Below the pieces are notes generated by a model, which was not told where the DNA came from, did no database searches, and saw only the letters and a list, made by a program, of their open reading frames with translations. The position numbers and the translations under genes were made by a program. 64,000 bases of DNA from Candidatus Uhrbacteria bacterium. GTDB lineage: Bacteria > Patescibacteriota > Patescibacteriia > UBA9934 > GWF2-40-263. The number at the start of each line of letters is the position of its first letter. Position 1 is the first letter of the stretch. Shown here one piece after another: positions 21,857 through 41,579 of this stretch. Location: the NCBI GenBank assembly GCA_023246355.1, contig JAHFIQ010000004.1:2697-66696 (forward strand). The letters are read 5' to 3'.

Positions 21857-22024
21857 TGGCCAGCCAGGGATCTCCTCAAAAACACGGGGTCACCCACCCG
21901 TGTTTTATCCCACCGTTGGTTCTCGGTGCCCCTCGTAACTCGCCTGGCAAGAATGACAGAAGCAGACCGATGGACGCCTCAGCCAGGCTCCGTTACGGTT
22001 TTTTCGGAGATCCCTGGCTGGCCA
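21857..22024 (+). repeat. structured repeat family B, copy 2 (mreB 5' region)
   Basis: perfect 19-bp IR tggccagccagggatctcc/ggagatccctggctggcca. Confidence 0.85.
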
Positions 22025-22027
22025 CCT

Positions 22028-23032
22028 ATGTTTCAAAGAAAAATTGGGATTGATCTTGGGACCACCACCGTCCTCGTTTATGTTCCTAAACGAGGGATTA
22101 TTATTCATGAGCCATCTGTGGTGGCTGTGTCGGTTACGGATAAAAAAGTGCTGGCGGTCGGTAAGGAAGCAAAGGACATGTTGGGTCGCACACCAGACAC
22201 GATCGTTGCTAGACGTCCACTCAAGGATGGCGTGATCGCTGACTATCGAACGACTGAGGCCATGCTGCGCTACTTCATCAACAAGGCGTTGGGTGGTGTG
22301 AGACTTTTTCGACCTGAGGTGATGGTGGCGGTTCCCGGTGGCATCACGTCCACGGAGCGCCGCGCGGTCATCGATGCCACACTCGCGGCCGGTGCCAAAG
22401 CTGCCTACATCATCAAGGAGCCGATCGTGGCTGCCATCGGAGCCAACATTCCGATCGGCTCGCCTTCAGGCCATATGATTATCGACATCGGTGGGGGCAC
22501 GAGCGAGATGGCGGTCATTTCCTTGGGAGGCATTGTGGCTTCGGAATCTGTGCGCATCGGCGGGGTGAAGTTTGACTTGGCAATTTCTGAGTACATTCGG
22601 CGCAAGTACGGGCTTGCCATCGGTGAGCGAACAAGTGAAGACATTAAAATCCAAATTGGGGCGGCCATGTACTTACCCGACAAACTCGCCATGGAAGTGA
22701 AAGGCCGCGATATGGTCACAGGCCTGCCGAAAATTATCGAAGTGACATCAGATGACGTCACGGTTGCCATTCAAAACGAACTGGAGGGCATCATCAATAC
22801 GGTCAAAGAAGTTTTACACAAAACACCCCCAGAGCTTTCAGCCGACGTCATGGACAAAGGCATTGTGCTCTCCGGTGGCTCCTCGCAGCTGAGAAATCTT
22901 GATACACTGATTGCTGAGGCAACCGGTGTTCCAACGTTCGTGGCAGAAGATCCTCAACAATGCGTGGCCAAGGGAACAGGCATTGCGCTTGAAAATTTGG
23001 AAGCGTACAAGAGATCAATTTTTACATCGTAG
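22028..23032 (+). CDS. mreB: rod shape-determining protein MreB
   Basis: IGIDLGT, EPSVVA, DIGGGT. Confidence 0.97.
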   Translation: MFQRKIGIDLGTTTVLVYVPKRGIIIHEPSVVAVSVTDKKVLAVGKEAKDMLGRTPDTIVARRPLKDGVIADYRTTEAMLRYFINKALGGVRLFRPEVMVAVPGGITSTERRAVIDATLAAGAKAAYIIKEPIVAAIGANIPIGSPSGHMIIDIGGGTSEMAVISLGGIVASESVRIGGVKFDLAISEYIRRKYGLAIGERTSEDIKIQIGAAMYLPDKLAMEVKGRDMVTGLPKIIEVTSDDVTVAIQNELEGIINTVKEVLHKTPPELSADVMDKGIVLSGGSSQLRNLDTLIAEATGVPTFVAEDPQQCVAKGTGIALENLEAYKRSIFTS

Positions 23033-23034
23033 TT

Positions 23035-24201
23035 ATGCCAGCCGACTTGAATCTCCTTGCAACACAAACAACCGGAGACATTGTCTACGGCATCGACGCG
23101 TCGTCTGCAAACAAACAAAAGCGCACCGGAGTCGAGAACTATGCGCGAGAGCTAATTCAAGCTCTGAAATTGCAACCGCTCAAAGAACAGGAGCGCGTTG
23201 TTTTATATACACCTACGAAGTTAGATGATGAACTTGGCGTGCTTCCAGCTGGTTGGACCTCGCAGATTCTCCACTGGCCGCTCAAGCGTGGCTGGATGTC
23301 CTGCCGCGTGAGTTGGGAGATGCTGCGTCATCGGCCCAGCGTCTTGTTTGTTCCAGGTCAGGGGCTTCCAAGATTTGCAGGAGTGACTCTTACCACCATT
23401 CACGACCTTGCCTTTGCCCGCCGTCCTGATCTCTACGATCCATCCGTGCGTCGACGGCTCAAGCGCGTGACCAAACATGCGATCAAAAAAGCGACGCGGA
23501 TCTTGGTTCCTAGCCAAGCAACCAAACAAGATCTCGTTGATCTCTATCACGTGACATCTGATCGGATCGTTGTTACACCTGAAGCGGTGAACACCAAAGT
23601 GTTTCATCCTTACTCACCAGAGGACGCTCGAGTTACGCTACAACAGCATCGTCTTGGTGCAAATTTTTTTCTCACCGTCGGCAGGCTCGAAAAGAAAAAG
23701 AATCTCACGACCCTGATTCGAGCCTTTGAGTTGTTCAAGAGCCGTCGGGGAATGGGCGATCCGTTTGAGCTGTTGCTCGTGGGAGAGCCAGGCTTCGGCT
23801 ACACAGAAATTAAAAAGTATATCGATCTTTCTCCTTACAAAAATCAAATTCATGAACTCGGCTATCTTCCCGATGAGGAAGTCGCGCCACTCATGAGTGC
23901 GGCAACCGCGTATGTGTTTCCGTCTTGGTATGAAGGCTTTGGGATTCCGAATCTGGAAGCCATGCTTGCTGGGACAACACTTATCACCTCGGACATCGAA
24001 GCGCATCGTGAAGTCGTTGGCGACGCAGGCTTGCTTGTTGCCCCGGGTGAACCAGAGGCTTGGGCACAAGCTCTCGCGCGAGTCGTCAAAGAGGGAAGTT
24101 TGCGCGCTGAGCTTGTTGAGCGTGGCAAACAAAGAGTCATGGGTTTTTCTTGGCAGAAGACAGCAGCAATGACACTGGACAGCTTGAGATCTTTGGTGTA
24201 G
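23035..24201 (+). CDS. glycosyltransferase family 4
   Basis: TGVENY, TIHDL, YEGFGIPNLEAM. Confidence 0.93.
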   Translation: MPADLNLLATQTTGDIVYGIDASSANKQKRTGVENYARELIQALKLQPLKEQERVVLYTPTKLDDELGVLPAGWTSQILHWPLKRGWMSCRVSWEMLRHRPSVLFVPGQGLPRFAGVTLTTIHDLAFARRPDLYDPSVRRRLKRVTKHAIKKATRILVPSQATKQDLVDLYHVTSDRIVVTPEAVNTKVFHPYSPEDARVTLQQHRLGANFFLTVGRLEKKKNLTTLIRAFELFKSRRGMGDPFELLLVGEPGFGYTEIKKYIDLSPYKNQIHELGYLPDEEVAPLMSAATAYVFPSWYEGFGIPNLEAMLAGTTLITSDIEAHREVVGDAGLLVAPGEPEAWAQALARVVKEGSLRAELVERGKQRVMGFSWQKTAAMTLDSLRSLV

Positions 24202-24212
24202 TGTCAGGGATT

Positions 24213-24989
24213 ATGGACGAACTCAAAAAAGAACTGCAACACTTGGGGCTTTCTGATAAGGAAGCAAAGGTGTACTTGGCTGCCCTTGAACTTGGCCCAT
24301 CGCCTGTCCAGGACATCTCCCATAAAGCCCATGTGAACCGGGCGACGACCTATGTGATGATTGAGTCATTGGCTTCGCGCGGGCTCATGTCAACCTTTCA
24401 AAAAGGCAAGAAACGTTTTTACGTCTCCGAGAGTCCTGATCGACTGCTCTCGATCATTCAAATCCAGCAAAAAGAATTGGCAGAAAAAGAATCAGAGTTG
24501 CAAGGCGTGATGCCGCTGCTCACCAGCCTCTACAATGCCGAAGGTGCCAAGCCGCAGATTCGATACTTGGAAGGCATGGAAGGCGTGAAAACCGTTCGGG
24601 CGATTTTTGAAAAGCTGCCTGGTGACTTTATCGAGATCGCGCCACTGGACGATGTCCATGAAACAAAAGAGTTAATGGGAGAAGGGCGCGAAGAACATCA
24701 TGCGGTGCTACGACAGAAAGGCGCCAAGTATCGCGTGCTCGCCATCACCAAAAATACCGACCCGATGTGTTTGCCTGACATGGGAGAAGGGGAATGGCGC
24801 ATGCTGCCACCGGAAAAGTTTCCCATTCATGGGAGCATCGTGGTGCGTCGAGATTATGTGTTCCTGTTCTCATATCGTTCGTCGATTTTGTCCGTTGTGA
24901 TTCGTTCGCAGGAAATTGCCGATGCGATCCGTGCCCTGTTTGCCCTGGCGTGGGATGGGGCAAAGGGTTATCCCTCAAAGGGTTGTTAA
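24213..24989 (+). CDS. TrmB-family transcriptional regulator
   Basis: LGLSDKEAKVYLAALELG HTH; YLEGMEG. Confidence 0.9.
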   Translation: MDELKKELQHLGLSDKEAKVYLAALELGPSPVQDISHKAHVNRATTYVMIESLASRGLMSTFQKGKKRFYVSESPDRLLSIIQIQQKELAEKESELQGVMPLLTSLYNAEGAKPQIRYLEGMEGVKTVRAIFEKLPGDFIEIAPLDDVHETKELMGEGREEHHAVLRQKGAKYRVLAITKNTDPMCLPDMGEGEWRMLPPEKFPIHGSIVVRRDYVFLFSYRSSILSVVIRSQEIADAIRALFALAWDGAKGYPSKGC

Positions 24990-25020
24990 AAAGAAGACAG
25001 ACCTGCGTGGTCTGTTTTTC
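24988..25020. terminator. bidirectional terminator
   Basis: aaaaagaagacagacc-tgcgt-ggtctgtttttc. Confidence 0.75.
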
Positions 25021-25291
25021 GTTTCGTCTGTTGGTCGATGGAGTGGGGATGTGGAGAGAACGTGAGAGTGAGAGTTGTCTCTTGCTAGCTGCCGCCTGGG
25101 CAGATGTAGCAAGGGCAGAACCGCCTGGGATCTTCGTCGACAGCGTGTCGACGAGTCCTGGCCAACCGTGTTGCACGGAAGGCACAAGCGGAATGCAACT
25201 CATTCATCACCATCCTCTCTATCTCCATCACATCCTCCTCACCTTTGTCTGTCCGTTGGACTTATTGTTCGCCGCTCATGTTGAGAAACGA
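24988..25291 (-). ncRNA. putative stand-alone structured RNA (or mRNA of a 47-aa ORF at 25085-25228)
   Basis: promoter TTGACG-N17-TAGTTT (25326-25298), several hairpins, terminator. Confidence 0.45.
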
Positions 25292-25428
25292 CAAGACAAA
25301 CTAACAAGAAGGCTGGTTCTCGTCAAGAGATTCTGTTGGCGAACGTTGGCAAACAAAAAACTCCGACGACTGTCGAAGTTTTTTGCTACTCCTTGGGAGA
25401 GAGTTGGGTAATGAAACCCTCGAAGGGT

Positions 25429-25507
25429 AGTAGCAAGTAGTTAGTAGCAAGTAGCATGTATGTTCACTCCGAAAATACTTGCTACGTGCTACGTGATACT
25501 TGCTACT
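25429..25507. repeat. inverted heptamer hairpin element, empty copy
   Basis: nearly identical to the 31771-31851 copy. Confidence 0.9.
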
Positions 25508-25603
25508 GCTCTCAGAGCGTCGCCCGACACGTCCTTTCCCCAGCAATGGTTTGAGAGCGTGTCAGGCAGAGAGCGCTAGTCACGTCGTTCGCGAACGACG
25601 TGA

Positions 25604-25732
25604 CTAGATGATGCCGCGCAGGTGCGGGCCTTCCTCGAAGAGGAGCTTGATCGCGTAGACGGCGGAGAAGGCCATCATCGCATAGAGGACATGCTCGAGC
25701 TCGCACTTCGCGATCAGTTCAATGAAATACAT
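25604..25732 (-). CDS. 42-aa small hydrophobic protein (not in ORF track)
   Basis: AGGAGGT RBS; MYFIELIAKCELEHVLYAMMAFSAVYAIKLLFEEGPHLRGII; GC3-biased codons. Confidence 0.65.
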   Translation of the reverse strand: MYFIELIAKCELEHVLYAMMAFSAVYAIKLLFEEGPHLRGII

Positions 25733-25744
25733 GGGGACCTCCTA

Positions 25745-25812
25745 GTCCTAGCAGGACACGACCGGGGTCATGTTCTCTTAGGACTCGGCGATCGATTTCG
25801 TGTCGATCGCCG
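25745..25812 (-). repeat. two-hairpin intergenic motif, copy 1
   Basis: homologous to 27262-27337 and 27813-27880, with compensatory changes. Confidence 0.85.
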
Positions 25813-25956
25813 TCCGTTGGTTTCTCACCGTGGAGGTTCTGCTCCCTCTGGGCTCACCGTCCGGTGGCCGAAGTTCTCCATTGCTGGATCGCTTCGACCA
25901 CCGGCATCGCAGGTGACGCGCCTGGTTTGAGTCCAGGAACTTGCGGCCGCGGGGAC

Positions 25957-27216
25957 CTACTTCTTCTTGCCCGCCGACTGCATGTCGTTGCGGATCTGGC
26001 GATCCTTCTCGGCGCGCGCTGCCATCTTTGCCAGCTTCCACGCCGGGGCGCCATTGCCGCTCCCGCCGGTCGCACCGCCGTTGCCGACGACGTCTCCGAA
26101 TCGCGGACGCAGGTTCCGGCTGGCCGCCTGGTACTTCAGCTCCTCGTCCATCATCGTCCGCATGGTCTCCTTGAGGGAGTACCCGCGGCCGAAGCGACGG
26201 ATGCAACGCTCGCCGAACGCGTGCCGCCACAGGTCTTTCGACCCGATGCGGCTTCCGTTCTGACGCTCGCGCATCGCACCGATTGGCGGCACCTGGGCCA
26301 CCGACTCGAGCACGAGGTTGCCGCATCCGCAGACGCACCGGAACGCGAGTCCCGACGCGGTGCTGATTCGACCGAAGGGATCGCTCCCCTCGGGCTTCAC
26401 GCTGGGGATCACCAGGATCAGCGGCGCGGACGCAGGGGAGGCCGACTTGCGGGCGGGGAGGACGAGGCCGGGCTTCACGGTCGCCTTGGGCTTGCGGCTC
26501 TCGACGATCTCGCTCACGCGGGCCTGGAGGGCACCCGCGCTGCGGAACAGGAGATCGACACCGAAGCCCGAGAGCTCCGACGGCGTTTCTCCATTCCACC
26601 CGATCACCTTCACGACCTCGCGGTCGTCGGTGAGACGGGCGAGCTCGTCGGCGGCCTTGCACGCGGCGGTGACCGCGGAGAGGTAGTCGGCCTCCATGGC
26701 GCGGGGGTGATCGCTCCACCTCTCCATGATCAGGTCGGTGCGGCTGAAGCCGAACTGCCGGACCAGGACGTGGTCGTCGATCTCATTCACCGCGTCCGCG
26801 AGGCGCGAGAGCCTGTCCGTGTAGACCGCCTCGCCGACGGTGTCGTCGTCGAACTCGTACTCGCTTTCCTCGCTGTCGGCCTCGATCTCCTCGTCGGACG
26901 CCTCTTCCCAGCTCTCGTACGAGCCGGCGAAGTTGTCCCACTCGGTGGCCGTCAGGTAGACCTCGCGGGACTGGACGGACGCGCTCGCGCGCATGCCGCC
27001 GTTCTGCCGACGGTTCAGCTCGCGCTGCCACGCCACGTCCTGCAGAGCCTGGTCCTCGTCGACCATGTCGAGGTTCTCGAGCGCGATGTCCGAGTAGTCG
27101 GGCGAGTTCGCGTCGCCTTCGCTCGTGACGTGGGAAGTGATCCCACGGCGATTGAACTTGATGCCGAGTTCGCGCACGCCTTCGGAGGCGAGGATGGGGC
27201 TGGGGGATCGGGACAT
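25957..27216 (-). CDS. hypothetical protein (acidic N-half, CxCGC motif, basic C-tail)
   Basis: 419 aa, AGGAG RBS, strong GC3 bias. Confidence 0.8.
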   Translation of the reverse strand: MSRSPSPILASEGVRELGIKFNRRGITSHVTSEGDANSPDYSDIALENLDMVDEDQALQDVAWQRELNRRQNGGMRASASVQSREVYLTATEWDNFAGSYESWEEASDEEIEADSEESEYEFDDDTVGEAVYTDRLSRLADAVNEIDDHVLVRQFGFSRTDLIMERWSDHPRAMEADYLSAVTAACKAADELARLTDDREVVKVIGWNGETPSELSGFGVDLLFRSAGALQARVSEIVESRKPKATVKPGLVLPARKSASPASAPLILVIPSVKPEGSDPFGRISTASGLAFRCVCGCGNLVLESVAQVPPIGAMRERQNGSRIGSKDLWRHAFGERCIRRFGRGYSLKETMRTMMDEELKYQAASRNLRPRFGDVVGNGGATGGSGNGAPAWKLAKMAARAEKDRQIRNDMQSAGKKK

Positions 27217-27261
27217 GAGAATCTCCTGGTTCAGTGGGGGGGGGAAGTAACCTTGGGCAAA

Positions 27262-27337
27262 GCCCTAGCAGTTCACGATTTAAGATCATGGACTCTTAGG
27301 GCTGGGCGAGTCGACTCACGTACGAATCGATCGCCCA
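27262..27337 (-). repeat. two-hairpin intergenic motif, copy 2
   Basis: gccctagcag..cacga..tcatg..ctcttagggc plus ggcga..tcgcc hairpin. Confidence 0.8.
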
Positions 27338-27394
27338 CCACGTCGCTCGCGAGCGACGTGGCCGTCGTTCCCTTCGCCGTTGGCGTCTAGCCGT

Positions 27395-27601
27395 TCATCG
27401 AGCGGTCGCGGTCTGCAGGCGGCGGGCCTGCTCCATGCGGCGGACGAAGCGGGGAAGGATCACGGGGACGGCGGGGCGCGGCGGCGGGGTGGTGCCGGTG
27501 CAGAAGATCATGCCGGTCGTGAGAAAACGATCGGCGTCCTCGTCGGTGAAGAAGCGGTCGGTGGCGCGGGCCACCATGAGGATCGTGGGGGAAGGGGGCA
27601 T
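27395..27601 (-). CDS. 68-aa hypothetical protein
   Basis: GGGGAG RBS; MPPSPTILMVARATDRFFTDEDADRF... Confidence 0.6.
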   Translation of the reverse strand: MPPSPTILMVARATDRFFTDEDADRFLTTGMIFCTGTTPPPRPAVPVILPRFVRRMEQARRLQTATAR

Positions 27602-27812
27602 GGGAAGACTCCCCTGGTCGGTTGGTTCGGGTCCGACGCAGGAATTCGGAGAAGAATGGTCCAGTGACCTACCCGAAGGTTGGTGTAGACCTGGAACAAC
27701 GGGCATATGGATCAAGTAAGCGTAAGCCTAGTTGGGCCATTTGTTGTTCCTCCTCACGACCGCTTTTGGCGGCCAGAGGTTTCTCTCTCCTCCGAGTTCC
27801 TGTGTCAGATTT

Positions 27813-27880
27813 CCCTAGCAGGACACGATCATCGATCATGTTCTCTTAGGGTTCGGCGATCAATTTCGTGTTGATCGCCG
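27813..27880 (-). repeat. two-hairpin intergenic motif, copy 3
   Basis: ccctagcaggacacga..tcatgttctcttaggg plus cggcgatcaa/ttgatcgccg. Confidence 0.85.
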
Positions 27881-28012
27881 CCCGTGTGCACCTAGCGTTT
27901 TTTCGGAAGGAGCAGGTGCGCTCCTTCCAACCACCCTTTCGGTTTCCGTTGTTCGCATCCTGTCTGGGACGCGGTAACGGTGGGCTGTGGTGCCCGTGTT
28001 GCTCGCCTCGCG

Positions 28013-28657
28013 CTAGCCGTTGGTTCCGGTTCCTTCGCCCTCGTCCGCCTCGTCCTCATCGGACTCGGCGGGTTCGGGGGCGGCGGTTCCGGCGGCGATC
28101 GCGGCGGCCTCGGCGCGGCGGGCTTCCTCGAGGTCGGCCTTGAACTGCGCGTAGCCTTCCTCGCCGGCGATGAGCTCGAGGATCTGCAGCGAGGTGCGGA
28201 TGTGGAGGCCGTGCTTGCCGATGATCGCGCGCGCGACGGTCTTCTCGGTCTCCTGCGTCGGTGCGTTGAACACCGGCGCGAGGGTCTCGATCAGCACGTC
28301 ACGCTCGCCACGACCGAGCTTCACCGGGCGACCCTCGGGGGTCTTCTTGTCGAGCGCCACGCCTTCCTTGGCCGCCTTCATCTCCGGGATCCAGCTCTGG
28401 AAGTACCACTCGCGGCTGCCGGCTTCGAGCTCGACCTTGGCCATGGCCCACCCGATCTGCACGATCGCGAAGGCGGACTGGCGGGACGAGATCGCGAAGT
28501 CGAACAGCTTCTGTCCGTGGTCCTTGAGCGGCTCGTAGAGACCGACGATGAGTTGGACCGCGAGGTCCGCTTCGTCGCGGGACACCACGGGCGTGGTCTG
28601 GCGCGGAGCCTGGCGGGGGGCGACGGCACTGTTGCGGGTCGGGAGCGTGAGAGACAT
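28013..28657 (-). CDS. hypothetical protein
   Basis: 214 aa, AGGAG RBS, GC3 bias, acidic tail. Confidence 0.8.
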   Translation of the reverse strand: MSLTLPTRNSAVAPRQAPRQTTPVVSRDEADLAVQLIVGLYEPLKDHGQKLFDFAISSRQSAFAIVQIGWAMAKVELEAGSREWYFQSWIPEMKAAKEGVALDKKTPEGRPVKLGRGERDVLIETLAPVFNAPTQETEKTVARAIIGKHGLHIRTSLQILELIAGEEGYAQFKADLEEARRAEAAAIAAGTAAPEPAESDEDEADEGEGTGTNG

Positions 28658-29099
28658 TGGGACTCCTGTTCTTGCGGTTGCGGCCGTGTGGCCAGGGAAC
28701 TGAATCGCTCGACGGTCAGAAATGATCCCGTCAGCCTACTGGAGGCCAGCCGTCGCCCTTGCGGGCTATGGCTGGTAAATAGTGGTGCATTGACCGATCC
28801 GAGGATCTGGTGTGCACCGTGGAGATCGGGTGTGTGGGGTGAGTGAGCCAAGGCCCAGTCAATCCACTTGATCTCCTCCGCTCATCGCGGCCGAAGCGTT
28901 GATGAGACGGTTTTACTCTCTCCTCCATGAGGCTGATGGCATCAGAACAAAAACCGGTTGTTGAATACATCGTCCAGAGAGAGATGCGTACAACAACCGG
29001 CCTTTGTGAAGGTTACGATTGATGGCCATTTACTTGGCCTGAGTACTCTCTCCCCAGAAAGTGTTTCGTTGTAAGCTTTGTGTGATCTTGTATGGACGC

Positions 29100-29128
29100 A
29101 GTCTATCATATTTTGTCAACTTTGTCAA
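29100..29128 (-). promoter_or_regulatory. sigma70 promoter of the GC-rich unit
   Basis: TTGACA-N17-TAGACT with extended -10 TG. Confidence 0.75.
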
Positions 29129-29133
29129 GACTT

Positions 29134-29154
29134 GTTGGGAGCCAGGCTCCCAAC
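29134..29154. repeat. REP-like palindrome
   Basis: gttgggagcc-a-ggctcccaac. Confidence 0.65.
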
Positions 29155-29250
29155 TCTAAGCTAAAATTAGCTTAAAATAGCAATACACTCAGTGTTTACA
29201 ATACTGGACATCACAGGGCAATTTCAGCCTCGTGTTATACTAGTGCCTGT

Positions 29251-30150
29251 ATGGGACTTTTTTCTTCCCTCATCGGACACACAAAAGCAAAAGACGTTCT
29301 TTCAAGGATGATCGAACACAAAACCCTTCCACATGCCCTGCTTTTTGTCGGGCCAGATCACGTGGGAAAGACTCTGCTTGCCAAAACGCTGAGTCGTCAG
29401 GTTCTGGGGGTGCAGAATCTTGAGACTCAGCCTGACTATCTCGAGCTCAAACGTTTGGATGATGAAAAAACAGGCAAGCGCAAGTCCAATATCTCTGTGC
29501 GTCAGGTTCGAGAATTGGTGGGAAGGCTATCCATGACCTCGTTTACTGGAGGAGCCAAAGTGATTTTTGTAGAAGAGGCACATAGGCTCTCCATGGGCGG
29601 GGCGAACGCGCTTTTGAAAACATTGGAAGAACCAAAAGGCCAAACGCTTTTTGTCTTGCGAGCTCCGAGCGTTGAAGACGTTCCTGCGACTATTGCATCT
29701 CGTTGTCAGGTCATGCATTTCACGGTGGTCTCTGCATCTGCAATTGTTGATGGGCTTGTGCGAGCTGGATTCAGTCAAGCCGATGCACAAGAGGCGGCGC
29801 TTCACAGCGAAGGTCGGCCAGGACTCGCGCTGCGCTATCTCAAAGACAGTGAGTATCGAGCGCAGCGTGAAACCGATCGAGTGCAAGCAGAGACGTTTTT
29901 GGCAGCGAGTTTGCCAGAGCGTTTGCGCCTGGTGACAGAGCTCATTCCAAAAGCAGAAGTGAACAGTGCGAGTCGTTTGCAAAAAGTGATCACCGAATTG
30001 CAGATGGTCGCTCGTCGAGATCTTCTTGCCACCTCATCTACCTCCTCCACCTTATCCACCTTTCTCGAGCGTCTCTCAGAAGTCCGCCAAGCCGCACGTC
30101 ACAACATCAACCCTCATTTAGCTCTTGAGCACATTGCTCTTGCCACATAA
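29251..30150 (+). CDS. holB: DNA polymerase III delta' subunit
   Basis: HALLFVG..GKT, ANALLKTLEEP, TIASRCQ. Confidence 0.9.
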   Translation: MGLFSSLIGHTKAKDVLSRMIEHKTLPHALLFVGPDHVGKTLLAKTLSRQVLGVQNLETQPDYLELKRLDDEKTGKRKSNISVRQVRELVGRLSMTSFTGGAKVIFVEEAHRLSMGGANALLKTLEEPKGQTLFVLRAPSVEDVPATIASRCQVMHFTVVSASAIVDGLVRAGFSQADAQEAALHSEGRPGLALRYLKDSEYRAQRETDRVQAETFLAASLPERLRLVTELIPKAEVNSASRLQKVITELQMVARRDLLATSSTSSTLSTFLERLSEVRQAARHNINPHLALEHIALAT

Positions 30151-30151
30151 T

Positions 30152-31198
30152 ATGAAACGTTTTTCACTCATTGCTCTTTCCCTCATCTTGATCGGCGCTG
30201 GCTGCTCAAGTTCCTCATCTTCTGGTTCAGACGGCGGAATTTTTTCCTCCGCAAACGCTGGTCAGGACTGGACACAGACCGTGATCGTTCCCACCGCCTC
30301 AGGCATCGGCACACTCGCGACCACGGATGTGCTCAACATGGAAATGGATCCAGAGGACGATACGTTCATGTACATCGGCACGCGCCAAAACGGGGTGCTC
30401 TACTCGCAAGACTCGGGTATCTCGTGGATGCAACCTGAGAGTGATGCTCTTTCCGACGGACTGATTTATCACATCGAGGTGGACCCCACAGATGTCTGTA
30501 CCGTGTATGTTGCCAAGGGTTCTCGTTTGTATAGCACACGAGATTGTATGCGCTCGTTTGATTCAGAAACGTACGTGGATAACAGAAGTGGCGTGTCAGT
30601 TGTGCAAGTGGCTGTGGACTGGTTCAGCGCAAGTACGATTTGGATTGGTCTCTCAAACGGAGATGTACTCAAGAGCACAGACTCAGGTGACACGTGGCAG
30701 ACGGTTCTCAAAACAGGAGAGGAAATTTCCAACATCCTGATTCACACAACCGACTCAAGAAACGTTCTCGTTTCGACCTTTGGAAAAGGCTTGTACAAAA
30801 CAGAGGACGCGGGTGCTGATTGGGATGAAGTTGATGGCGGACTTTCTGATCTGAAAAAATCTGAAACCGTGTACAGCCTGATTCAAAGCGATGATTCATC
30901 TGTGGTAATCGCAGCCAATGGGTATGGACTTGTGCGCTCAACAGATTTTGGTTCGACATGGGAGGCGATTGAGCTGGTGACCTCCGCCGGTCAGGTAACG
31001 ATCCGTGCTGTGGGCATGGACGTCACGGATCCTGACACGCTTTACTATGCTGCCAACGCCACGTTCTATCATTCAGACGATGCAGGCTCCACCTGGGACA
31101 CAGAAAAACTTCCGTCCTCTCGCGTGCCACGAGCCATGCTGGTTGACCCTGATGAGCCGGCGGTGTTATATATCGGAGTCGCGAGTGCGACGGATTAG
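30152..31198 (+). CDS. BNR/Asp-box beta-propeller lipoprotein (YCF48-like)
   Basis: lipobox LIGAGC; repeated SxDxGxTW. Confidence 0.85.
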   Translation: MKRFSLIALSLILIGAGCSSSSSSGSDGGIFSSANAGQDWTQTVIVPTASGIGTLATTDVLNMEMDPEDDTFMYIGTRQNGVLYSQDSGISWMQPESDALSDGLIYHIEVDPTDVCTVYVAKGSRLYSTRDCMRSFDSETYVDNRSGVSVVQVAVDWFSASTIWIGLSNGDVLKSTDSGDTWQTVLKTGEEISNILIHTTDSRNVLVSTFGKGLYKTEDAGADWDEVDGGLSDLKKSETVYSLIQSDDSSVVIAANGYGLVRSTDFGSTWEAIELVTSAGQVTIRAVGMDVTDPDTLYYAANATFYHSDDAGSTWDTEKLPSSRVPRAMLVDPDEPAVLYIGVASATD

Positions 31199-31201
31199 TG
31201 T

Positions 31202-31756
31202 ATGCATGCACTTCTGATTCAAAAAAAACCATCGTTTGATAGCGCGCTTGAGCATCTCCAAAAAGAGTTGGGACAGTTGCGCACCGGACGTGCCACGCCA
31301 GCACTTGTGGAAAATATTTCGGTTTCTGCCTACGACGCATTCATGGAGATCAAGGGCTTGGCTTCCATTTCCACAGCCGATGCCAAAACGATTGTGATTG
31401 ATCCGTGGGACAAGAGCCTGCTCAAGAATATCGAAAAGGGCATTCGCGATGCCGGCGTTGGGCTTTCACCGGTCGTGGATAGTGATGTGATTCGCATCAT
31501 GATGCCGCAAATGACCGAGGACAACCGCAAGGCCATGGTCAAAAAGATGAAAGAGTTTTTAGAAGAGACACGCGTGTCGCTGCGCCAGGTTCGTGAAGAA
31601 ATTCGTGGAGAAGTCGTTGCCATGGAAAAAGACAAGGCGATCAGTGAAGATGAAAAGTTCAAGCTGTTTGATGAGGTTGATAAGCTCACCAAAGAATACG
31701 TGGATCGTGTGGAAGAAACGGGTGACAATAAAGAAAAAGAAATAATGACCGTTTAA
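31202..31756 (+). CDS. frr: ribosome recycling factor
   Basis: LRTGRATP, PWDK, ISED. Confidence 0.96.
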   Translation: MHALLIQKKPSFDSALEHLQKELGQLRTGRATPALVENISVSAYDAFMEIKGLASISTADAKTIVIDPWDKSLLKNIEKGIRDAGVGLSPVVDSDVIRIMMPQMTEDNRKAMVKKMKEFLEETRVSLRQVREEIRGEVVAMEKDKAISEDEKFKLFDEVDKLTKEYVDRVEETGDNKEKEIMTV

Positions 31757-31851
31757 GTAGCAAACTGTTTAAGTAGCAAGTAGTTAGTAGCAAGTAGCAT
31801 GTATATCTGCTCCGAAAATACTTGCTACATGCTACTTGATACTTGCTACTT
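31755..31851. repeat. inverted heptamer hairpin element, empty copy (frr-glyS)
   Basis: aagtagcaagtagttagtagcaagtagcatgtat..atacttgctacatgctacttgatacttgctactt. Confidence 0.9.
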
Positions 31852-31856
31852 CGCTT

Positions 31857-33188
31857 ATGAACACAAACGTCACCATGGAAAAACTCGTTGCCCTCGCGAA
31901 GTCGCGGGGGTTCGTGTTTCCGGGCTCGGATATTTATGGAGGATTGGCTAACTCTTGGGATTACGGACCTCTTGGGGTGGAGTTGAAAAAGAACATTGTC
32001 GATGCCTGGTGGAAGCGCTTTGTTAGTTCGCGGCGCGATATGGTTGGCATCGACGCGGCGTTGGTGATGAATCCGAAAGTTTGGGAGGCGTCGGGGCATG
32101 TCGCTACGTTCACCGATCCGCTCGTGGAATGCAAAACCTGTCATGAACGCTATCGTGCTGATCAAATTGATTTGAATGCGGCTTGCCAGAAATGCGGCAA
32201 CAAAGGCACGTTCACCGATCCAGCGGCGTTTAACATGATGTTGAAAACGTGGCTTGGTCCGAAGGAGGATGCAAGCGCGGTCGCTTATTTCCGTCCCGAA
32301 ACGGCTCAAGCGATGTTTGTGGATTTCCCCCAAGTTCTTCAAAGCTCGCGCAAACGCGTTCCGTTTGGTATTGCTCAAGTCGGCAAAGCCTTTCGCAACG
32401 AGATCACGCCAGGAAATTTTATTTTCCGTACACGCGAGTTCAACCTAATGGAATTTGAGTATTTTATTCACCCATCGGAGTGGGAAAAGTGGTTCGAATA
32501 CTGGCTAGAAGAGATGAAGGCTTGGCTGAGATTTCTCGGGGTCAAGGATGATGAATTGGTTTTCCACGAAATTGAAGACGGTGAACGCGCGCACTACTCC
32601 AAGCGCACCGTCGATATTGAATATTATTATCCGTTTGGTCTGAAGGAATTGTATGGTTTGGCTTACCGCACCGATTTTGATTTAAAACTGCACATGGAAT
32701 CCTCAGGGAAGGATTTGCGCTATACCGACCCTCAGACGAACGAGAAGTATCTCCCGCACGTCATTGAGCCGGCTTTCGGTGTGGATCGATCGGTTCTTGT
32801 GACGCTGCTTTCAGCCTACCACGAAGAAGAAGCCCCGACGTCAGAGGAAGGGGAAACAGATAAACGTGTGGTGCTGAAACTTCCCAAAGCGCTTGCGCCG
32901 TTTAAGATCGCGGTGTTGCCGCTTTCCAAAAAAGACGAACTCGCTGTGGTCGCAGGACCTCTCGCAGATCGTTTGCGCCAGAGGTGGGCGACCGATTACG
33001 ACGAAACCCAATCCATTGGCAAACGTTATCGACGTCAAGACGAAATCGGCACGCCGTACTGCGTCACGGTAGATTTCGACACGCTCACAGATCAGGCCGT
33101 CACCGTCCGCGATCGAGACACGATGAAACAGGATCGAGTGAAGATAGATGATTTGGAAGTTTATTTTTCAGAGCGCCTCGCAGGCTAA
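31857..33188 (+). CDS. glyS: glycine-tRNA ligase (alpha2 type)
   Basis: DYGPLG, RPETAQ, FRNEITP, IGKRYRRQDEIGTP. Confidence 0.96.
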   Translation: MNTNVTMEKLVALAKSRGFVFPGSDIYGGLANSWDYGPLGVELKKNIVDAWWKRFVSSRRDMVGIDAALVMNPKVWEASGHVATFTDPLVECKTCHERYRADQIDLNAACQKCGNKGTFTDPAAFNMMLKTWLGPKEDASAVAYFRPETAQAMFVDFPQVLQSSRKRVPFGIAQVGKAFRNEITPGNFIFRTREFNLMEFEYFIHPSEWEKWFEYWLEEMKAWLRFLGVKDDELVFHEIEDGERAHYSKRTVDIEYYYPFGLKELYGLAYRTDFDLKLHMESSGKDLRYTDPQTNEKYLPHVIEPAFGVDRSVLVTLLSAYHEEEAPTSEEGETDKRVVLKLPKALAPFKIAVLPLSKKDELAVVAGPLADRLRQRWATDYDETQSIGKRYRRQDEIGTPYCVTVDFDTLTDQAVTVRDRDTMKQDRVKIDDLEVYFSERLAG

Positions 33189-33197
33189 AGCCTGCGG

Positions 33198-33238
33198 CTA
33201 CCTCATCCACCTGATCCACCTCGTCCACCTTACCACCT
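33198..33238 (+). repeat. 9-nt-period CCACCTnnn tandem repeat
   Basis: five units; related tracts at 3578, 7605, 30029, 37326. Confidence 0.75.
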
Positions 33239-34510
33239 ATGAAAACCCCCCTTGCTCTTTCAAACGGCCTGCGTGTGCATCTGCTTCCATATTCTGGCAC
33301 ACAGGCGGTGACCATGTTGGTGCTCATCAAAGTTGGTTCGCGTTATGAATATTCAGCGATCAATGGCGCGTCGCATTTTATTGAGCATCTCATGTTCAAA
33401 GGCACCAAGCGTCGTCCAACCACGCTGGATATTAGTCGTGATCTCGATGCGGTGGGCGCCGAGTACAACGCGTTCACCGGAAAGGAATACACCGGTTACT
33501 ACGTGACCATCGAAGCCTCGAAGCTGCCCTTGGCAGTCGACCTGTTGCATGACATGATTTTTCACTCGAAGTACGATCCCAAAGAAATGAATCGTGAACG
33601 GCGTGTCATCATCGAGGAGATCAAAATGTACAACGAGAACCCCGTCATGCACGTGGAAGAGTTGCTGGAGCAGACGATGTTTGATGGCTCACCCCTTGGA
33701 TGGGATATTGCTGGCGATGCAAAACGGATGTTGTCGATGACGCGCAAGGACGTGATTGCGTACCGTGATCAGCATTACGTGCCATCGCGGATGGTGATTG
33801 CTCTGGCCGGTTGCGTGGACAAGAAAGCTCTAGCGCTTGTGAAAAAAACATTTGGATCTGTGAAAGGGAGACACACACCCGTTGCGTTTCAGGCTTTTCA
33901 CGGAGCAAAGAATCACTCTTTGCGCTGTCGAATCGAACAGAAAAAGTTGGAACAGATTCAGCTCGCGCTAGGCTTTCCGTCCTATGGTGTTGCCGACAAG
34001 CGCAATGCAGCTGTTTCACTTTTAGCGACGATTCTTGGCGGCACGATGTCGTCTCGATTGTTTATCTCGGTACGTGAACGCAAAGGCTTGTGCTATCACG
34101 TTCGTGCGGAGAACGGAACGTATGATGATGTAGGAGCGTTCATGATTCGCTCAGGCCTGGATGCGTCGCGTCTCAAAGACGCGGTGAAGACGATTTTGGC
34201 TGAAGTGGCTAAAATAAAAAAGACAGGAGTGACCGCGCGTGAACTCAAAGACGCAAAAGAAAATTATCGTGGCCGCATTTTGCTCAAGCTCGAAGAATCA
34301 TCCGCTCGTGCCGATTGGTATGCGAGACAGGAGTTGCTCTTGGGTCGTGCCCTGACACCAGAAGAACGCATGAGGGAGATTGACGCGGTGACTCTGCGCG
34401 AGGTACAACACGTCGCGCAGGAAATTTTGGACACCACAAAGATGTCTGTGGCGGCGATCGGGCCGTTTGCCGATGAACAAGCGTTTTTGAAAGCGGCTGG
34501 GTTATCATGA
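33239..34510 (+). CDS. M16 family zinc peptidase
   Basis: HFIEH (HxxEH) motif. Confidence 0.95.
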   Translation: MKTPLALSNGLRVHLLPYSGTQAVTMLVLIKVGSRYEYSAINGASHFIEHLMFKGTKRRPTTLDISRDLDAVGAEYNAFTGKEYTGYYVTIEASKLPLAVDLLHDMIFHSKYDPKEMNRERRVIIEEIKMYNENPVMHVEELLEQTMFDGSPLGWDIAGDAKRMLSMTRKDVIAYRDQHYVPSRMVIALAGCVDKKALALVKKTFGSVKGRHTPVAFQAFHGAKNHSLRCRIEQKKLEQIQLALGFPSYGVADKRNAAVSLLATILGGTMSSRLFISVRERKGLCYHVRAENGTYDDVGAFMIRSGLDASRLKDAVKTILAEVAKIKKTGVTARELKDAKENYRGRILLKLEESSARADWYARQELLLGRALTPEERMREIDAVTLREVQHVAQEILDTTKMSVAAIGPFADEQAFLKAAGLS

Positions 34511-34528
34511 TACTGAGCTTGTCGAAGT

Positions 34529-35305
34529 ATGAAAACCATTATTGCCAACTGGAAAATGAACGTGGGAGTGAGAGAATCAGTCGCCCTTGCGCGCGGCACG
34601 CTGTTGACGTTGCGTGGTCGCAAACATATTCCCGAGTTGGTGATTCTTCCACCGTTTGTCGCGCTCTCGGAAGTGCGCAAAGTTGTGGCGCGATCCGGGG
34701 CAATTTTGGGAGCACAGAATGTCTTTTGGGAAGACGCCGGTGCCTACACCGGAGAAATTTCTGCGCGCATGCTTCAAGAAGTGGGTGTGACCCATGTTTT
34801 GATAGGTCACTCAGAACGCCGACAGGTGCTTCACGAGACCGATGAAATGATCAACAAAAAAATCCTCCACGTCTTTGAACTGGGCTTGAAGCCGATTCTG
34901 TGCGTGGGTGAAACAGCACAGGTACATCAGGCGGGGAAGTCAAAAGACGTGGTCGCTCAGCAACTCAAAGCCGCGTTCTCATCTGCTCATCTTCGCCCAT
35001 CTGATCGATTGTCTATTGCCTACGAACCCGTGTGGGCGATCGGGACAGGACAATCGGCAACCGTATCGGAAATCGTGGAGATGCATGTGTTCATCCGTTC
35101 TCTGACGCAAGAGATACTCGGTGAACGCGTACTCAGTCAGATTCGTGTGCTCTACGGAGGATCCGTGGACGGCGAGAATGCGTACCGGTTTCTTCGTGAA
35201 AAGGAAGTTGATGGCGTGCTCGTGGGAGGCGCAAGTGTCAAGATCAATCAGTTCAAAGACATTGTTCAGGCGGCCTGTGAAGTCTTAGAAGCACAAAGCG
35301 TATGA
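34529..35305 (+). CDS. tpiA: triose-phosphate isomerase
   Basis: ANWKMN, GHSERR, AYEPVWAIGTG. Confidence 0.97.
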   Translation: MKTIIANWKMNVGVRESVALARGTLLTLRGRKHIPELVILPPFVALSEVRKVVARSGAILGAQNVFWEDAGAYTGEISARMLQEVGVTHVLIGHSERRQVLHETDEMINKKILHVFELGLKPILCVGETAQVHQAGKSKDVVAQQLKAAFSSAHLRPSDRLSIAYEPVWAIGTGQSATVSEIVEMHVFIRSLTQEILGERVLSQIRVLYGGSVDGENAYRFLREKEVDGVLVGGASVKINQFKDIVQAACEVLEAQSV

Positions 35306-36150
35306 ACGGGTTTCTTCTTCTGCTCATTGTTGGTTCTCTTGGCGTGATAGCCGCTGTCCTCTTTCGAAAGCTTCCACAGCTTCGTGTGATTGATGTTGCG
35401 TCGATTCCCAAGGAGCGCGAGCGGCAGGTAAAAGAGCAAATCATTCTTTCCAAACTTCAGCGCACCGGCTCTGCCAAGCTGCAGCATGTGGCTCGATGGA
35501 TGTCGGACGCTGTAAAAATGTTGTCACGCCACGGACGACGTGCGGTTCAGCGACTCTATCGACTGGAGCAGTACTATCAACGCTTGAGACGGACCGCCTC
35601 TGAGGGGACAAACAGTTATAGTGAGGATCGCATCAAGCAACGACTTGAAGAAGCGCAGAAATTGATCGATCAAGATGAATTTATTCCAGCGGAGAAGATT
35701 TTTATCGACGTCATCAGCCACAACCCAAAGAGTGTTGACGCATATGAAGCGCTTGGGAACATGTACATTGAGAGTGGTCAGGTGGAACAAGCTCGTGAGA
35801 CCCTGCAGTTTACGCTTCGACTTTCTCCTGATGATGCGTCTGTCCATGTGTCGCTTGCGGAACTTGAAATGAAACAAGAACATCCGAAACAAGCGCTGAC
35901 CTATTTGCGCAAGGCGGTTGAAAAGCGACCGAAGAATCCTCGGTACTTGGATTTTTATATTCATGCCGCGCTTTCGACCGGCTCTCTCAAAGATGCACGA
36001 AAAGGCATTTTGGCTCTCAAAGACGTGAACCCGGAGAATCAAAAGATCGAAGAGTTTGAACGGCTGTTTCAGGAAAAGAAAGATGCGTATATTCGCAAAA
36101 CCTCCCGTGAGGCTGAGAAACCCACAGACATGCCTTCACAAGAGGGATGA
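35302..36150 (+). CDS. membrane-anchored TPR protein
   Basis: N-terminal TM; AY..LG..Y TPR repeats. Confidence 0.85.
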   Translation: MNGFLLLLIVGSLGVIAAVLFRKLPQLRVIDVASIPKERERQVKEQIILSKLQRTGSAKLQHVARWMSDAVKMLSRHGRRAVQRLYRLEQYYQRLRRTASEGTNSYSEDRIKQRLEEAQKLIDQDEFIPAEKIFIDVISHNPKSVDAYEALGNMYIESGQVEQARETLQFTLRLSPDDASVHVSLAELEMKQEHPKQALTYLRKAVEKRPKNPRYLDFYIHAALSTGSLKDARKGILALKDVNPENQKIEEFERLFQEKKDAYIRKTSREAEKPTDMPSQEG

Positions 36151-36174
36151 GCTTTGTTACCATCATCGCGCTTC

Positions 36175-36250
36175 GCCGTTGTAGCTCAGTTGGTAGAGCA
36201 CATCCATGGTAAGGATGAGGTCACCGGTTCAATCCCGGTCAACGGCTCCA
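36175..36250 (+). tRNA. tRNA-Thr(GGU)
   Basis: cloverleaf, anticodon GGT, CCA end. Confidence 0.95.
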
Positions 36251-36256
36251 GGTTTC

Positions 36257-36342
36257 GGGCAGGTACCGAAGTGGTCAAACGGGGGAGACTGTAAATCTCC
36301 TGGCTTACGCCTTCGAAGGTTCGAACCCTTCCCTGCCCACCA
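36257..36342 (+). tRNA. tRNA-Tyr(GUA)
   Basis: cloverleaf with long variable arm, anticodon GTA, CCA. Confidence 0.95.
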
Positions 36343-36374
36343 AAAAACAATCAAGCATGCTTGATTGTTTTTTG

Positions 36375-37430
36375 TTACAGCAAGAGACAGTCCACGGTCC
36401 AGGAACTCATGCCAGGTCCGTCAAAGGCCTCATCGAGTGCAAGACCGATGGGATGATAGATCGGATTTGTTTGGGAGAGATCAATGAAAAAAAGTCGAGA
36501 GAAACTCACGGTTCCCTTTGTGTCCGTGTTGCACGAGGTGCTCACAAGCAGGTGTTCATCATCACCACAGAAGGTCGGATAGTTGAAGCTGGCGCCCTCA
36601 CAGGAGGAAAAGACGGGGTCGTACTTTGTGAGCGCTTCTGGTTTGAGATCTGCAAGAAACAGCGAGCTCTCGCCCAGTGATCCGTTTATCCACGAGCGAG
36701 CAAACAAGCCCCCACCTTTGGAGTTGTCACACACCGTGAGGGTCCCTGATGGAGAAAAGGCACAATGACCGCTTTTATTTTCCCAGGTGGCTGTGTCTCC
36801 CGTCTGTGTATCCAAGATCACTCCATGTGCGCCGTCATCCAAAATTTCATGAAGAATAATCGTGTGCCCGTCTGGTGCGTAATCAGGATCGCCCTGTTCG
36901 TTTTCTTCGGTGAGTGCCGAAGATTCAGAGATCGAGAGGCCGTTCAGTGTCAGAGCAGCGGACATGAGTCTGTCTGTATCACTTGTGACATACAGAAGCG
37001 TTGTTCCCTCAGGGCTCACCTCTGGCCAGGTGGCGAGAGAGAGCAGTGTGTCTGTGACGCCTGTTGTGAGATCGACGTAGTTGATGAGCTTCTGTGTGAT
37101 CGTCTCAAACACACTCGCGTAGACCACCATGCCATTTGGATTCCAAACAGGATAGGACTCGCTGATCTCGGGTGTCTCTGTCACTTGCTTCACGTCGTCT
37201 ACAGAACCTGCGTCCAGATCAAGATTCGCGGTAAAGAGATCACAAGCGTCTGTGCTACTGTGATCAGCGCAACCTTCATCTGTGGCAAAGTCAGAAGCGA
37301 AAACGAGTCGGGCCTGTGTTGAGGAAGGTGGAGAGGTGGACAAGGTGGACGAGGGAGATGAGGTGGATATCACAACAAGGATGATCATGATCACACACAG
37401 GAACAGACATACTCCAAAAGTTTTCTTCAT
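36375..37430 (-). CDS. secreted TolB-like (PD40) beta-propeller protein
   Basis: signal/TM; PVWNPNG, SPEG, APDG, FSPSG repeats. Confidence 0.8.
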   Translation of the reverse strand: MKKTFGVCLFLCVIMIILVVISTSSPSSTLSTSPPSSTQARLVFASDFATDEGCADHSSTDACDLFTANLDLDAGSVDDVKQVTETPEISESYPVWNPNGMVVYASVFETITQKLINYVDLTTGVTDTLLSLATWPEVSPEGTTLLYVTSDTDRLMSAALTLNGLSISESSALTEENEQGDPDYAPDGHTIILHEILDDGAHGVILDTQTGDTATWENKSGHCAFSPSGTLTVCDNSKGGGLFARSWINGSLGESSLFLADLKPEALTKYDPVFSSCEGASFNYPTFCGDDEHLLVSTSCNTDTKGTVSFSRLFFIDLSQTNPIYHPIGLALDEAFDGPGMSSWTVDCLLL

Positions 37431-37508
37431 AGATTTCTATTCTACCGCATCTCTTGACAAATCACTCCCACATGACATACTTTCCCTCTGCTCACCCACG
37501 GAGACAGC

Positions 37509-38048
37509 ATGACTCACTACGAGTTGCTCGCTGTCCCCATGGACGCGAGCACTGACGATATTCGACGCGGCTTTCGAGAGAAGGCTCAGGTTCTTCACCC
37601 GGATCGGTTTGCCAAGCTCGGCGAGTCGAAGGAGCAACAGACTGAACGGGCTCGCGTGTTTCAGCAACTGCGCGATGCCTACGAAACGCTCATAGATGAA
37701 CGTAAGCGTCGGGCCTATGACCGCCTGATTCAGGTTCCACAGGGTCTTGCTGATCTTGTGCGGCTTCCTGAAGGTCGGCGCGCCATGGCACGACTGCTTC
37801 CTCGAGCGACCAAGCAGGCTCGGGAAGGGGAAGATCGTCTCGTCCTCATCGAGGCTCCGCTATCTTTGCTCAGAACAGGAGGAGTGCTTGAGCTCACAGT
37901 GATTTCTTTACCCGGCTACGATCCACTGTTTGTGCCGCCGAACGCTCTTGACATGCCCTGGGCACATCTGAGCGAGCTGGGAAATCCGGGCGAAAACGAA
38001 GGAAATCCTGGAAACCTCTACCTCTTGCTGATTCCAAGCGCTTCTTGA
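37509..38048 (+). CDS. J-domain (DnaJ type III) protein
   Basis: HYELL, HPD, AYETL..RRAYD; GNLYL tail; promoter TTGACA-N17-CATACT. Confidence 0.88.
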   Translation: MTHYELLAVPMDASTDDIRRGFREKAQVLHPDRFAKLGESKEQQTERARVFQQLRDAYETLIDERKRRAYDRLIQVPQGLADLVRLPEGRRAMARLLPRATKQAREGEDRLVLIEAPLSLLRTGGVLELTVISLPGYDPLFVPPNALDMPWAHLSELGNPGENEGNPGNLYLLLIPSAS

Positions 38049-38139
38049 CCCTTTCGGGGGTCATTTTCTTTTGCCCGCTTTTCTTGACATTCTCAGTCGT
38101 TTTGATAGTCTGAGTCCTCCTCTTCCAGGAGTAGGAAAC

Positions 38140-38595
38140 ATGGCCCTGTTTTCACGCAGTGGCGCTCGAAGCGCCCTGTCTACATTCGTTCGTCAAAATG
38201 ATGAAGGCGGCAGCACGGACAGCCGTGCGACTCAGTCCGCTCGATTGCTTCAAGCAGGCTTCGCCCCGATCCTGTGGGACGATGAGCTTGGCGGATTCGT
38301 GAGCGACCCGGCGATCTTCGCCGCGGCCGTGAGTCACATCGCTACTGCCTCCATGGCTCCCGCAAAGCTCGAGGAACTCAAAGCAGTGAAGACCATCCAG
38401 GCGATGCGAGCACTCGCAAAGGACGTGGACGCCAGCATCGTGACGCCCGAGGATGGGGCACTCTCTGCCTTCCTGCGCGGCGTTGCGGCTCTGGGAACCG
38501 ACGGCCGTGTGTGGCTCTTGCTCGTCGCGGCTCATCTTGGCAGCTTGAAAGCAACTGCGCAGCTGCGCCCTCTCATCTACCCCAACCTCAAGTAG
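38140..38595 (+). CDS. hypothetical protein
   Basis: promoter TTGACA-N16-TAGTCT; AGGA RBS. Confidence 0.75.
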   Translation: MALFSRSGARSALSTFVRQNDEGGSTDSRATQSARLLQAGFAPILWDDELGGFVSDPAIFAAAVSHIATASMAPAKLEELKAVKTIQAMRALAKDVDASIVTPEDGALSAFLRGVAALGTDGRVWLLLVAAHLGSLKATAQLRPLIYPNLK

Positions 38596-38601
38596 GATGC
38601 C

Positions 38602-41494: not shown

Positions 41495-41579
41495 CAGTCA
41501 CAACGACCTGGCCAGCAAATGGCCGGGTTTTATTATTGGACAGCTGTTTGCCAATCGCTTATACTCATCGAGAATTGAG

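Follow-up and report, generated by a model that had tools for sequence, protein, structure and literature searches.

A two-hairpin element recurring between the genes of a single operon is a new, order-wide RNA family that is absent from Rfam 15 and exhibits strong covariation, and it is most likely a variant of the intercistronic RNase III processing signals. The element was recognized in a 64,000-nucleotide stretch of Candidatus Uhrbacteria DNA, the whole of which we refer to as the window. Uhrbacteria are tiny groundwater bacteria, and the literature searched contained no paper dealing with their RNA motifs or mRNA processing. The available main text of a preprint on intergenic clusters does not name them either (bioRxiv 10.64898/2026.10.21.760802). 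The element singles out a group of orphan operons that change fast, in bacteria with reduced genomes, and nucleotide-exact cut positions can be predicted for its three intact copies in the window.

The element and its operon

The initial annotation reported three copies of a two-hairpin motif, and pattern search and folding both reproduced their positions and minus-strand layout. In each copy, a 2-nt linker joins a GC-rich hairpin (P1) to a second hairpin of ~17 positions (P2). Exactly three instances of the core, CCTAAGAG-NN-CATGA-loop-TCGTG-NN-CTGCTAGG, are present in the 64 kb, all on the minus strand (25747-25782, 27264-27300, and 27814-27850 in a pattern search of the whole window), with a chance expectation for further copies of ~3e-10. 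P1 and P2 fold with z values of -4.8 to -5.4 on the minus strand, and the plus strand likewise yields -4.2 to -5.5. The count of three holds for intact copies, although a degenerate fourth (25414-25567) had been overlooked. The copies are as follows:

25745..25812, minus strand: copy 1 (P1 25786-25812; P2 25745-25784)
27262..27336, minus strand: copy 2 (P1 27304-27336; P2 27262-27302)
27813..27880, minus strand: copy 3 (P1 27854-27880; P2 27813-27851)
25414..25567, minus strand: copy 4, degenerate, behind the last ORF (P1 25522-25567; P2-like arms 25414-25519)

In copy 4, a host TACTTGCTAC repeat hairpin stands where the loop or tip of P2 should be; taken alone, its match to the model is weak (E 0.19), and RNAfold leaves its outer arms unpaired. 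Two related loci (L094 and L028) carry a P2 copy at the equivalent place. Counting copy 4, each of the four ORFs of the operon (214, 68, 419, and 42 aa) is followed by one copy of the element. The host repeat itself, a REP-like inverted repeat of TACTTGCTAC units, is found at ~8019-8074, 10816-10870, 25430-25506, 31773-31849, 59149-59178, and 59569-59599.

All of the copies belong to a 3.7-kb minus-strand unit located between holB and trmB, whose other parts are listed from its promoter to its end:

29100..29128, minus strand: sigma-70-type promoter (TTGACA-17-TAGACT, extended TG), which relatives conserve in this position
28948..29062, minus strand: leader L0, GGGGAGAGAGT and then a long hairpin with a T run, in most orthologous loci
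28720..28946, minus strand: structured leader L1 by its fold, multibranch with GGAGG/CCTCC closing
28013..28657, minus strand: ORF of 214 aa, SD-led, GC3 0.90, pieces covered by RNA contigs
27883..28000, minus strand: spacer X, a repeated structured unit ahead of P1 with two possible pseudoknots (by eye), in many loci
27638..27800, minus strand: structured leader L2, a paralogue of L1 by fold and comparison of loci
27395..27601, minus strand: ORF of 68 aa, SD-led, GC3 0.90
27338..27361, no strand: perfect 24-bp palindrome adjoining copy 2
25957..27216, minus strand: ORF of 419 aa with a CxCGC...H...C motif, SD-led, GC3 0.90, pieces covered by RNA contigs
25814..25920, minus strand: spacer Y, a second repeated structured unit ahead of P1, by comparison of loci and fold
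25604..25732, minus strand: ORF of 42 aa, its SD directly behind P2 of copy 1
25576..25607, no strand: perfect 32-bp palindrome, related to that at 27338
25352..25404, minus strand: operon end, ACTCTCTCCCAAGGAG (complementary to leader L0) and then a terminator-like hairpin

The ORFs of the unit have SD sites and a GC3 of 0.86-0.90, compared with 0.31-0.69 for the long ORFs of the window outside it. In four relatives, the ribosomal-protein genes have a GC3 of 0.25-0.6 and mostly lack an SD (by eye), and therefore the code of the unit is not the high-expression code of its host. Neither of the two long proteins, 419 and 214 aa, gave anything significant in Pfam or PHROGs, and the Atlas held no usable match. 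Their predicted structures have pLDDT values of 50 and 67, with best Z scores of 5.6 and 4.9 and no viral match, and their named relatives are all Uhrbacteria or Patescibacteria. Among the 72 genomes of G001's family, 14 contain the 419-aa family, mostly at the same site but with changing gene content and order. A viral origin was discarded, as the element pattern had 0 matches in viral contigs, the 419-aa family had none, and the locus keeps its syntenic place between holB and trmB. One of the syntenic loci (L002) comes from a record labelled Gammaproteobacteria; its TrmB is 92% identical to that of the window and genome G002 falls within G001's family, so the label looks wrong.

In two runs of a single study, RNA contigs extend over parts of the 419-aa and 214-aa genes and stop short of the element; those runs were found using this very stretch and consist of contigs, and thus they give no ranking of expression. 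They contain nothing else on 22000-32000 and only one tRNA on 32001-52000. DNA depth is flat across the unit at ~14. A joint between 27828 and 27286 in one DNA contig was considered as a circle and set aside: it has a foreign 7-nt loop and low depth, and we read it as the copy of another organism.

Several further features of the unit recur in its relatives. The leader (29040-29062) and the 3' end (25386-25412) are complementary, with a duplex of -23.3 kcal/mol and both motifs kept in relatives; it is possible that leader and trailer of the operon pair as a helix. The paralogous multibranch leaders L1 and L2, both beginning with GGAGGAGAGAG, are conserved in most orthologous loci and have no Rfam match. 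Spacers X (an A-rich linker with its two possible pseudoknots) and Y precede P1-P2 in many loci and are separate, uncatalogued RNA motifs. A resemblance between spacer X and preQ1-I or twister was dropped, since Rfam gives it no support. The CG-centred palindrome, perfect or near-perfect, recurs at 25576-25607 and 27338-27361 and in two other loci (L002, 5282-5311; L033, 1673-1694). TCTGAC is present on both sides of the 214-aa module (28690-28735 and 27785-27820), where relatives join L1 to L2 directly, and these flanks are possibly an insertion scar. Between the operon and trmB, many relatives share a conserved 48-aa ORF ending in CPCYICPGG (25085-25231 in the window, minus strand).

Covariation, working strand, and distribution

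The element is a real, conserved two-hairpin RNA family. Our main alignment comprises 49 of 105 rows. Weak and duplicate rows were excluded, as were copies whose loop carries a long insert and antisense matches to the same hairpin. In this alignment, 95.2% of the P2 pair cells are paired compared with 76.0 in shuffles, 104 cells are changed on both sides compared with 26.7 in shuffles, and 9 of 13 pairs change on both sides. None of 500 shuffles attained either the pairing or the both-side value, and slid controls were 33-43% paired; since the copies are relatives of one another and a model of this very structure selected them, these values are counts rather than probabilities. For the 26 copies outside the training set, position -3 is paired in all 26, using all four pair types, and position -13 is paired in 25. 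Thus, the suggestion that selection acts on structure has held up, with covariation persisting in many more homologues. As for the individual compensatory changes originally put forward, every stated base change is present in the three copies, but the swap of AA/UC for UC/AA is not covariation because both positions sit in a free 2x2 internal loop; they carry ~0.1 and 0.02 bits in the 49 copies and are often unpaired. Elsewhere in P2, single base pairs are fixed across an order while adjacent pairs covary.

The strand on which the element works was approached through loops and wobble pairs. Across 12 operons, coding parts included, the sense strand has 54 hairpins capped by GNRA or UNCG, compared with 18 for the antisense strand. 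The order-level set has 77 G-U against 35 A-C, counted in 46 of 53 rows (41 distinct, at least 2 mis-registered) and in a register whose choice is biased to A at -10 and -2. The wobble pairs of the main alignment (53 G-U, 58 A-C) make no call of strand. A function of the antisense strand, hinted at first by plus-strand G-U pairs, was dropped after the tetraloop and order-level counts. The element would accordingly be expected to act as sense-strand RNA within the messenger.

The exact pattern was found in 7 metagenome loci and 0 viral ones. A covariance model of the whole element built from 24 copies detected it in 22 of the 72 genomes of G001's family (E 0.01) and in 44 of 150 genomes of the order (E 0.02), and a model of P2 only extended this to 57 of the 150 (E 0.02) and to 4 of 151 genomes of the class (E 0.005). 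Searching 401 genomes of the class with the half-site pattern, one mismatch allowed, returned matches at control level, and the exact match appeared in G001 only.

Rfam 15 recognized only tRNAs in the window, and its E-value mode, applied to the region and 7 loci, gave nothing close to the cut-off, in agreement with the earlier statement that no known riboswitch or ribozyme was recognized. A new class of self-cleaving ribozyme, or a riboswitch, would fit the conserved non-canonical pairs (A-C, G-G, and U-G) and the highly structured spacers X and Y next door. Yet a conserved unpaired core is missing: the loops, including the 2x2 internal loop, vary freely, and the sequence of P1 is not fixed. 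The element also lies 3' of genes, sometimes with no gene downstream, and falls well short of the cut-off of every Rfam family, all of which makes this reading very unlikely. The hairpin ribozyme has an invariant N^GUC opposite AGAA, plus a loop B. It was rejected by name: GUC is found only in copies 1 and 3, at positions that are free in the family, and loop B is absent.

Arrangement of the element in other genomes

At the level of the order, the arrays that were read have a stop codon, P1, P2, an SD, and an ATG in succession between unrelated SD-led ORFs. An array contains ~3 to 8 copies, which differ little from one another in any one genome (L117, L118, L120, L121, L133, and L134), and the last of them often has no gene behind it, only a terminator (L001, L003, L028, L118, and L120). 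Because of these last copies, the element is to be regarded as 3' or intercistronic rather than as a leader. Copy 1 does lie close to the start of the 42-aa ORF, as had been noted, ending 13 nt ahead of its ATG, but the 5' leader role tied to the SD of that ORF does not survive the comparison, with the element coming after stop codons and last copies often being geneless downstream. Nor is binding by the encoded proteins a likely reason for the element, given that 0 of 20 order-level element loci match the 419-aa or the 214-aa protein; trmB is nearby in 6 of the 20.

Two stable hairpins behind stop codons, in copies homogenised within genomes, might also be a tandem-hairpin terminator or attenuator lacking a U tract, or else a neutral repeat propagated through gene conversion. 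However, P2 is followed in the window by at most three T rather than a U tract, the terminator scan lists no P2 copy, and the arrays have terminator-like end hairpins of their own. Neither idea needs single pairs to be held across an order while adjacent pairs covary, and we consider both quite improbable.

P2 also occurs directly behind tRNA-Asn (L096, 2282-2351) and tRNA-Phe (L146, ~1515-1558), and in the latter the CCA end forms the stem base; these tRNA-linked matches have weak scores (E 0.002-0.005), and tRNA ends also serve as sites of insertion. At 2286-2355 of L097, a P2-like hairpin stands behind a tRNA-like 3' end that ARAGORN does not call, the tRNA seemingly being interrupted by an insert. 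Downstream of the tRNA-linked copies in L096 and L097 is a ThsB TIR gene or an HNH gene. A search of 16 loci for P2 at 16S/23S stems, in rRNA inserts, or at rnc found none (best E 0.9).

Such an arrangement raises the question of whether P2 works as DNA, namely as a single-strand recombination site resembling attC or dif, with the operon being a cassette array moved by a tyrosine recombinase. One copy per ORF, unrelated cargo, shifting gene order, and near-identical copies within a genome all agree with this, as do the defence-type genes (ThsB TIR and HNH) behind the tRNA-linked copies, the TCTGAC on both sides of the 214-aa module, and the tyrosine recombinases, not typed, in 5 of 5 genomes. 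Integron attC/CALIN arrays similarly have an imperfect palindrome behind each ORF, variable cargo, and genome-specific copies, but here there are RNA-type tetraloops on the sense strand, mostly GC3-rich cargo, and no linked integrase to be seen. An attC site has an RYYYAAC ... GTTRRRY core at the hairpin base and extrahelical bases, while Xer dif has two arms around a central region of fixed 6 or 8 bp. By comparison, the attC core is present in 0 of 41 copies (judged from the sense-strand base only) and absent from the three window copies on either strand, and the arms are mostly symmetric, ungapped in nearly all 49 copies, and free of extrahelical bases. The region corresponding to the dif center is 5-10 nt long, with larger inserts in some copies. 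Arrays read by eye contain no integrase, the best match beside 8 recombinase genes has an E of 0.09, homology between copies ends at varying distances from P2, DNA depth is flat at ~14 with no joint listed, and the cargo is mostly GC3-rich and SD-led. Taken together, a recombination site seems improbable.

P2 as a candidate RNase III signal

A consensus for RNase III has been given as WNAGWGNNCWUNNN^NAWGNNCWCUNW, and the available text of its source calls it weak (PMC4357697). The 5' arm of P2, U-N-A-G-A-G-N-N-C-A-U, fits the half-site WNAGWGNNCWU, with all three window copies scoring 8 of 8. Across the 49 aligned copies, 16 score 8, 13 score 7, 19 score 6, and 1 scores 5; the 26 new copies contribute just one of the scores of 8. 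Position -5 is A-U in 46 copies and U-A in 3, never G-C; -6 is C-G in 45, -10 is A-U in all 49, and -9 is G in 47, while no base is fixed at the N positions of the consensus, -8 and -7, and all four pair types are represented at -13 and -3. The order-level set likewise has A-U or U-A at proximal box position 2 in 39 of 41 copies and G-C at position 1 in 36 of 41. Permuted patterns did as well in 0 of 3000 trials on the 49 copies and in 2 of 3000 on the 26 copies outside training, values that overstate the case, since several motifs had been tried before the RNase III consensus. None of 275 other hairpins reached 8 of 8, which informs on the control side only, as the P2 class was defined partly with the pattern.

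Position -5 has a known role. In the accessible parts of the respective papers, the proximal -5 pair must be A-U or U-A in vitro, where it is read by the dsRBD of E. coli RNase III (PMC1540722), the same requirement applies in vivo (PMC6212723), and a single half-site suffices to specify a cut (PMC1540722). All 5 relatives tested have an rnc gene with catalytic motif and dsRBD intact. Below the implied cut, P2 offers a duplex of ~15 positions (at least 11 bp are needed) with mismatches at -12/-11 and -8/-7. When the bacterial enzyme cleaves a substrate, it leaves a 2-nt 3' overhang.

Other positions depart from the E. coli rules. At position -3, 37 of 49 copies have G-C or C-G and the other 12 have A-U or U-A, and the available sections of PMC1540722 describe G-C/C-G at -3 as an E. 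coli catalytic antideterminant that keeps binding and lowers cleavage 7- to 14-fold. Position -4 is U-G in 31 of 49, so the E. coli optimum of A-U at proximal positions 3 and 4 is not found. The distal box has A-C (28 of 49) and G-G (23 of 49) instead of UA/UG, with the purines A and G kept in 41 and 30 copies, respectively; this box may differ between RNase III orthologues (PMC1540722, in the text available). The near-invariant A-U at -2 is absent from the consensus; at this position E. coli RNase III prefers G-C (PMC6212723), and B. subtilis shows no such preference (bioRxiv 10.1101/2023.03.12.532304), as far as the accessible portions of both sources go. Two pairs separate the implied scissile bonds from a 3-8 nt loop, which would place the two cuts 5-10 nt apart, compared with 16-1080 nt for mapped E. 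coli double cuts, a set in which closer sites were merged by design (PMC6212723, available text). No example of a bacterial RNase III cut adjoining a loop was found in the literature searched, and the accessible part of PMC7913692 contains nothing of the kind either. The consensus fits the six rRNA stems examined only patchily. A reversed RNase III site, cut at the base of the stem, was rejected, as the A-C and G-G mismatches would then enter the proximal box. For the orientation retained, the consensus predicts the following cuts:

25767/25766 and 25761/25760, minus strand: predicted cuts in copy 1
27285/27284 and 27278/27277, minus strand: predicted cuts in copy 2
27835/27834 and 27828/27827, minus strand: predicted cuts in copy 3

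We judge the prospects to be about even that the element is an intercistronic RNase III processing signal in which P1 protects the upstream 3' end. RNase III would bind P2 and cut on one or both sides of the loop, thereby removing it, and P1 would cap or protect the new 3' end of the upstream mRNA. The mismatches in P2 may then help the pieces to part, yielding single-gene mRNAs with the next SD exposed, much as is described for T7 R1.1 in the available text of PMC8708148. Because the copies of a genome are nearly identical, recombination could also reshuffle the genes that lie between them.

The confidence in cleavage goes no further, and binding alone deserves a hearing, because of the loop-adjacent cut, the G-C at -3, the mismatched distal box, and the odd -2 pair. 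It is conceivable, though rather doubtful, that P2 is bound and not cut by RNase III, another dsRNA-binding protein, or a host factor, with P1-P2 being an intercistronic stabiliser or insulator and any cut being made by another nuclease. The binding positions (-6, -5, -9, and -10) fit, the mostly G-C or C-G pair at -3 and the closeness of the loop are as expected for such a site, and the near-invariant A-U at -2 together with the U-G at -4 point to a reader with rules of its own. On the other hand, the A-U or U-A pairs at -3 speak for cleavage, as do the long loop inserts that turn P2 into a long duplex in some copies (copy 4 of the window, L008, and L028), which a cut site would tolerate. If P2 is indeed bound and uncut, it points to a new RNA-binding system.

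An elaboration of cleavage that we consider highly speculative is that Uhrbacteria make a dedicated, Dicer-like use of RNase III, clipping the P2 loop and turning each gene into a closed panhandle (or circularisable) RNA unit. The copies being near-identical, each released mRNA would start with the 3' arm of one P2 and end with the 5' arm of the next. Such units have SD sites and a GC3-rich codon dialect, both of which the ribosomal-protein genes of the cell are without; they could be messages stabilised for use in a special state or to be translated in the host cell of a presumed epibiont, and they could also be what gets shuffled. Dicer is an RNase III-family enzyme that cuts two pairs from the terminal loop of a pre-miRNA. 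The predicted cuts in P2 share this distance of two pairs, but the bacterial enzyme would be an RNase III of class 1 with ~231 aa, acting on a ~17-bp stem inside an mRNA.

For processing by RNase III as such, the closest counterparts are the intercistronic sites of the T7 early pre-mRNA (R1.1 and uR1.1), which, in the available portions of PMC8708148 and PMC1540722, are also hairpins between the genes of one transcript and also have one proximal box with G-C at position 1 and A-U/U-A at position 2 in a half-site of ~11 bp. In uR1.1 the loop is far from the cut, whereas in P2 the loop would adjoin the cut, in a reversed orientation. Compared with T7 R1.1, P2 also has a mismatched distal box, position 4 is mostly G-C, an extra hairpin (P1) stands in front, and the P1-P2 element is chromosomal and homogenised within each genome. 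If RNase III truly cuts the element, processing of the T7 early mRNA would have a counterpart on a chromosome, and a cut so close to the loop would be a geometry that we did not find described for bacterial RNase III.
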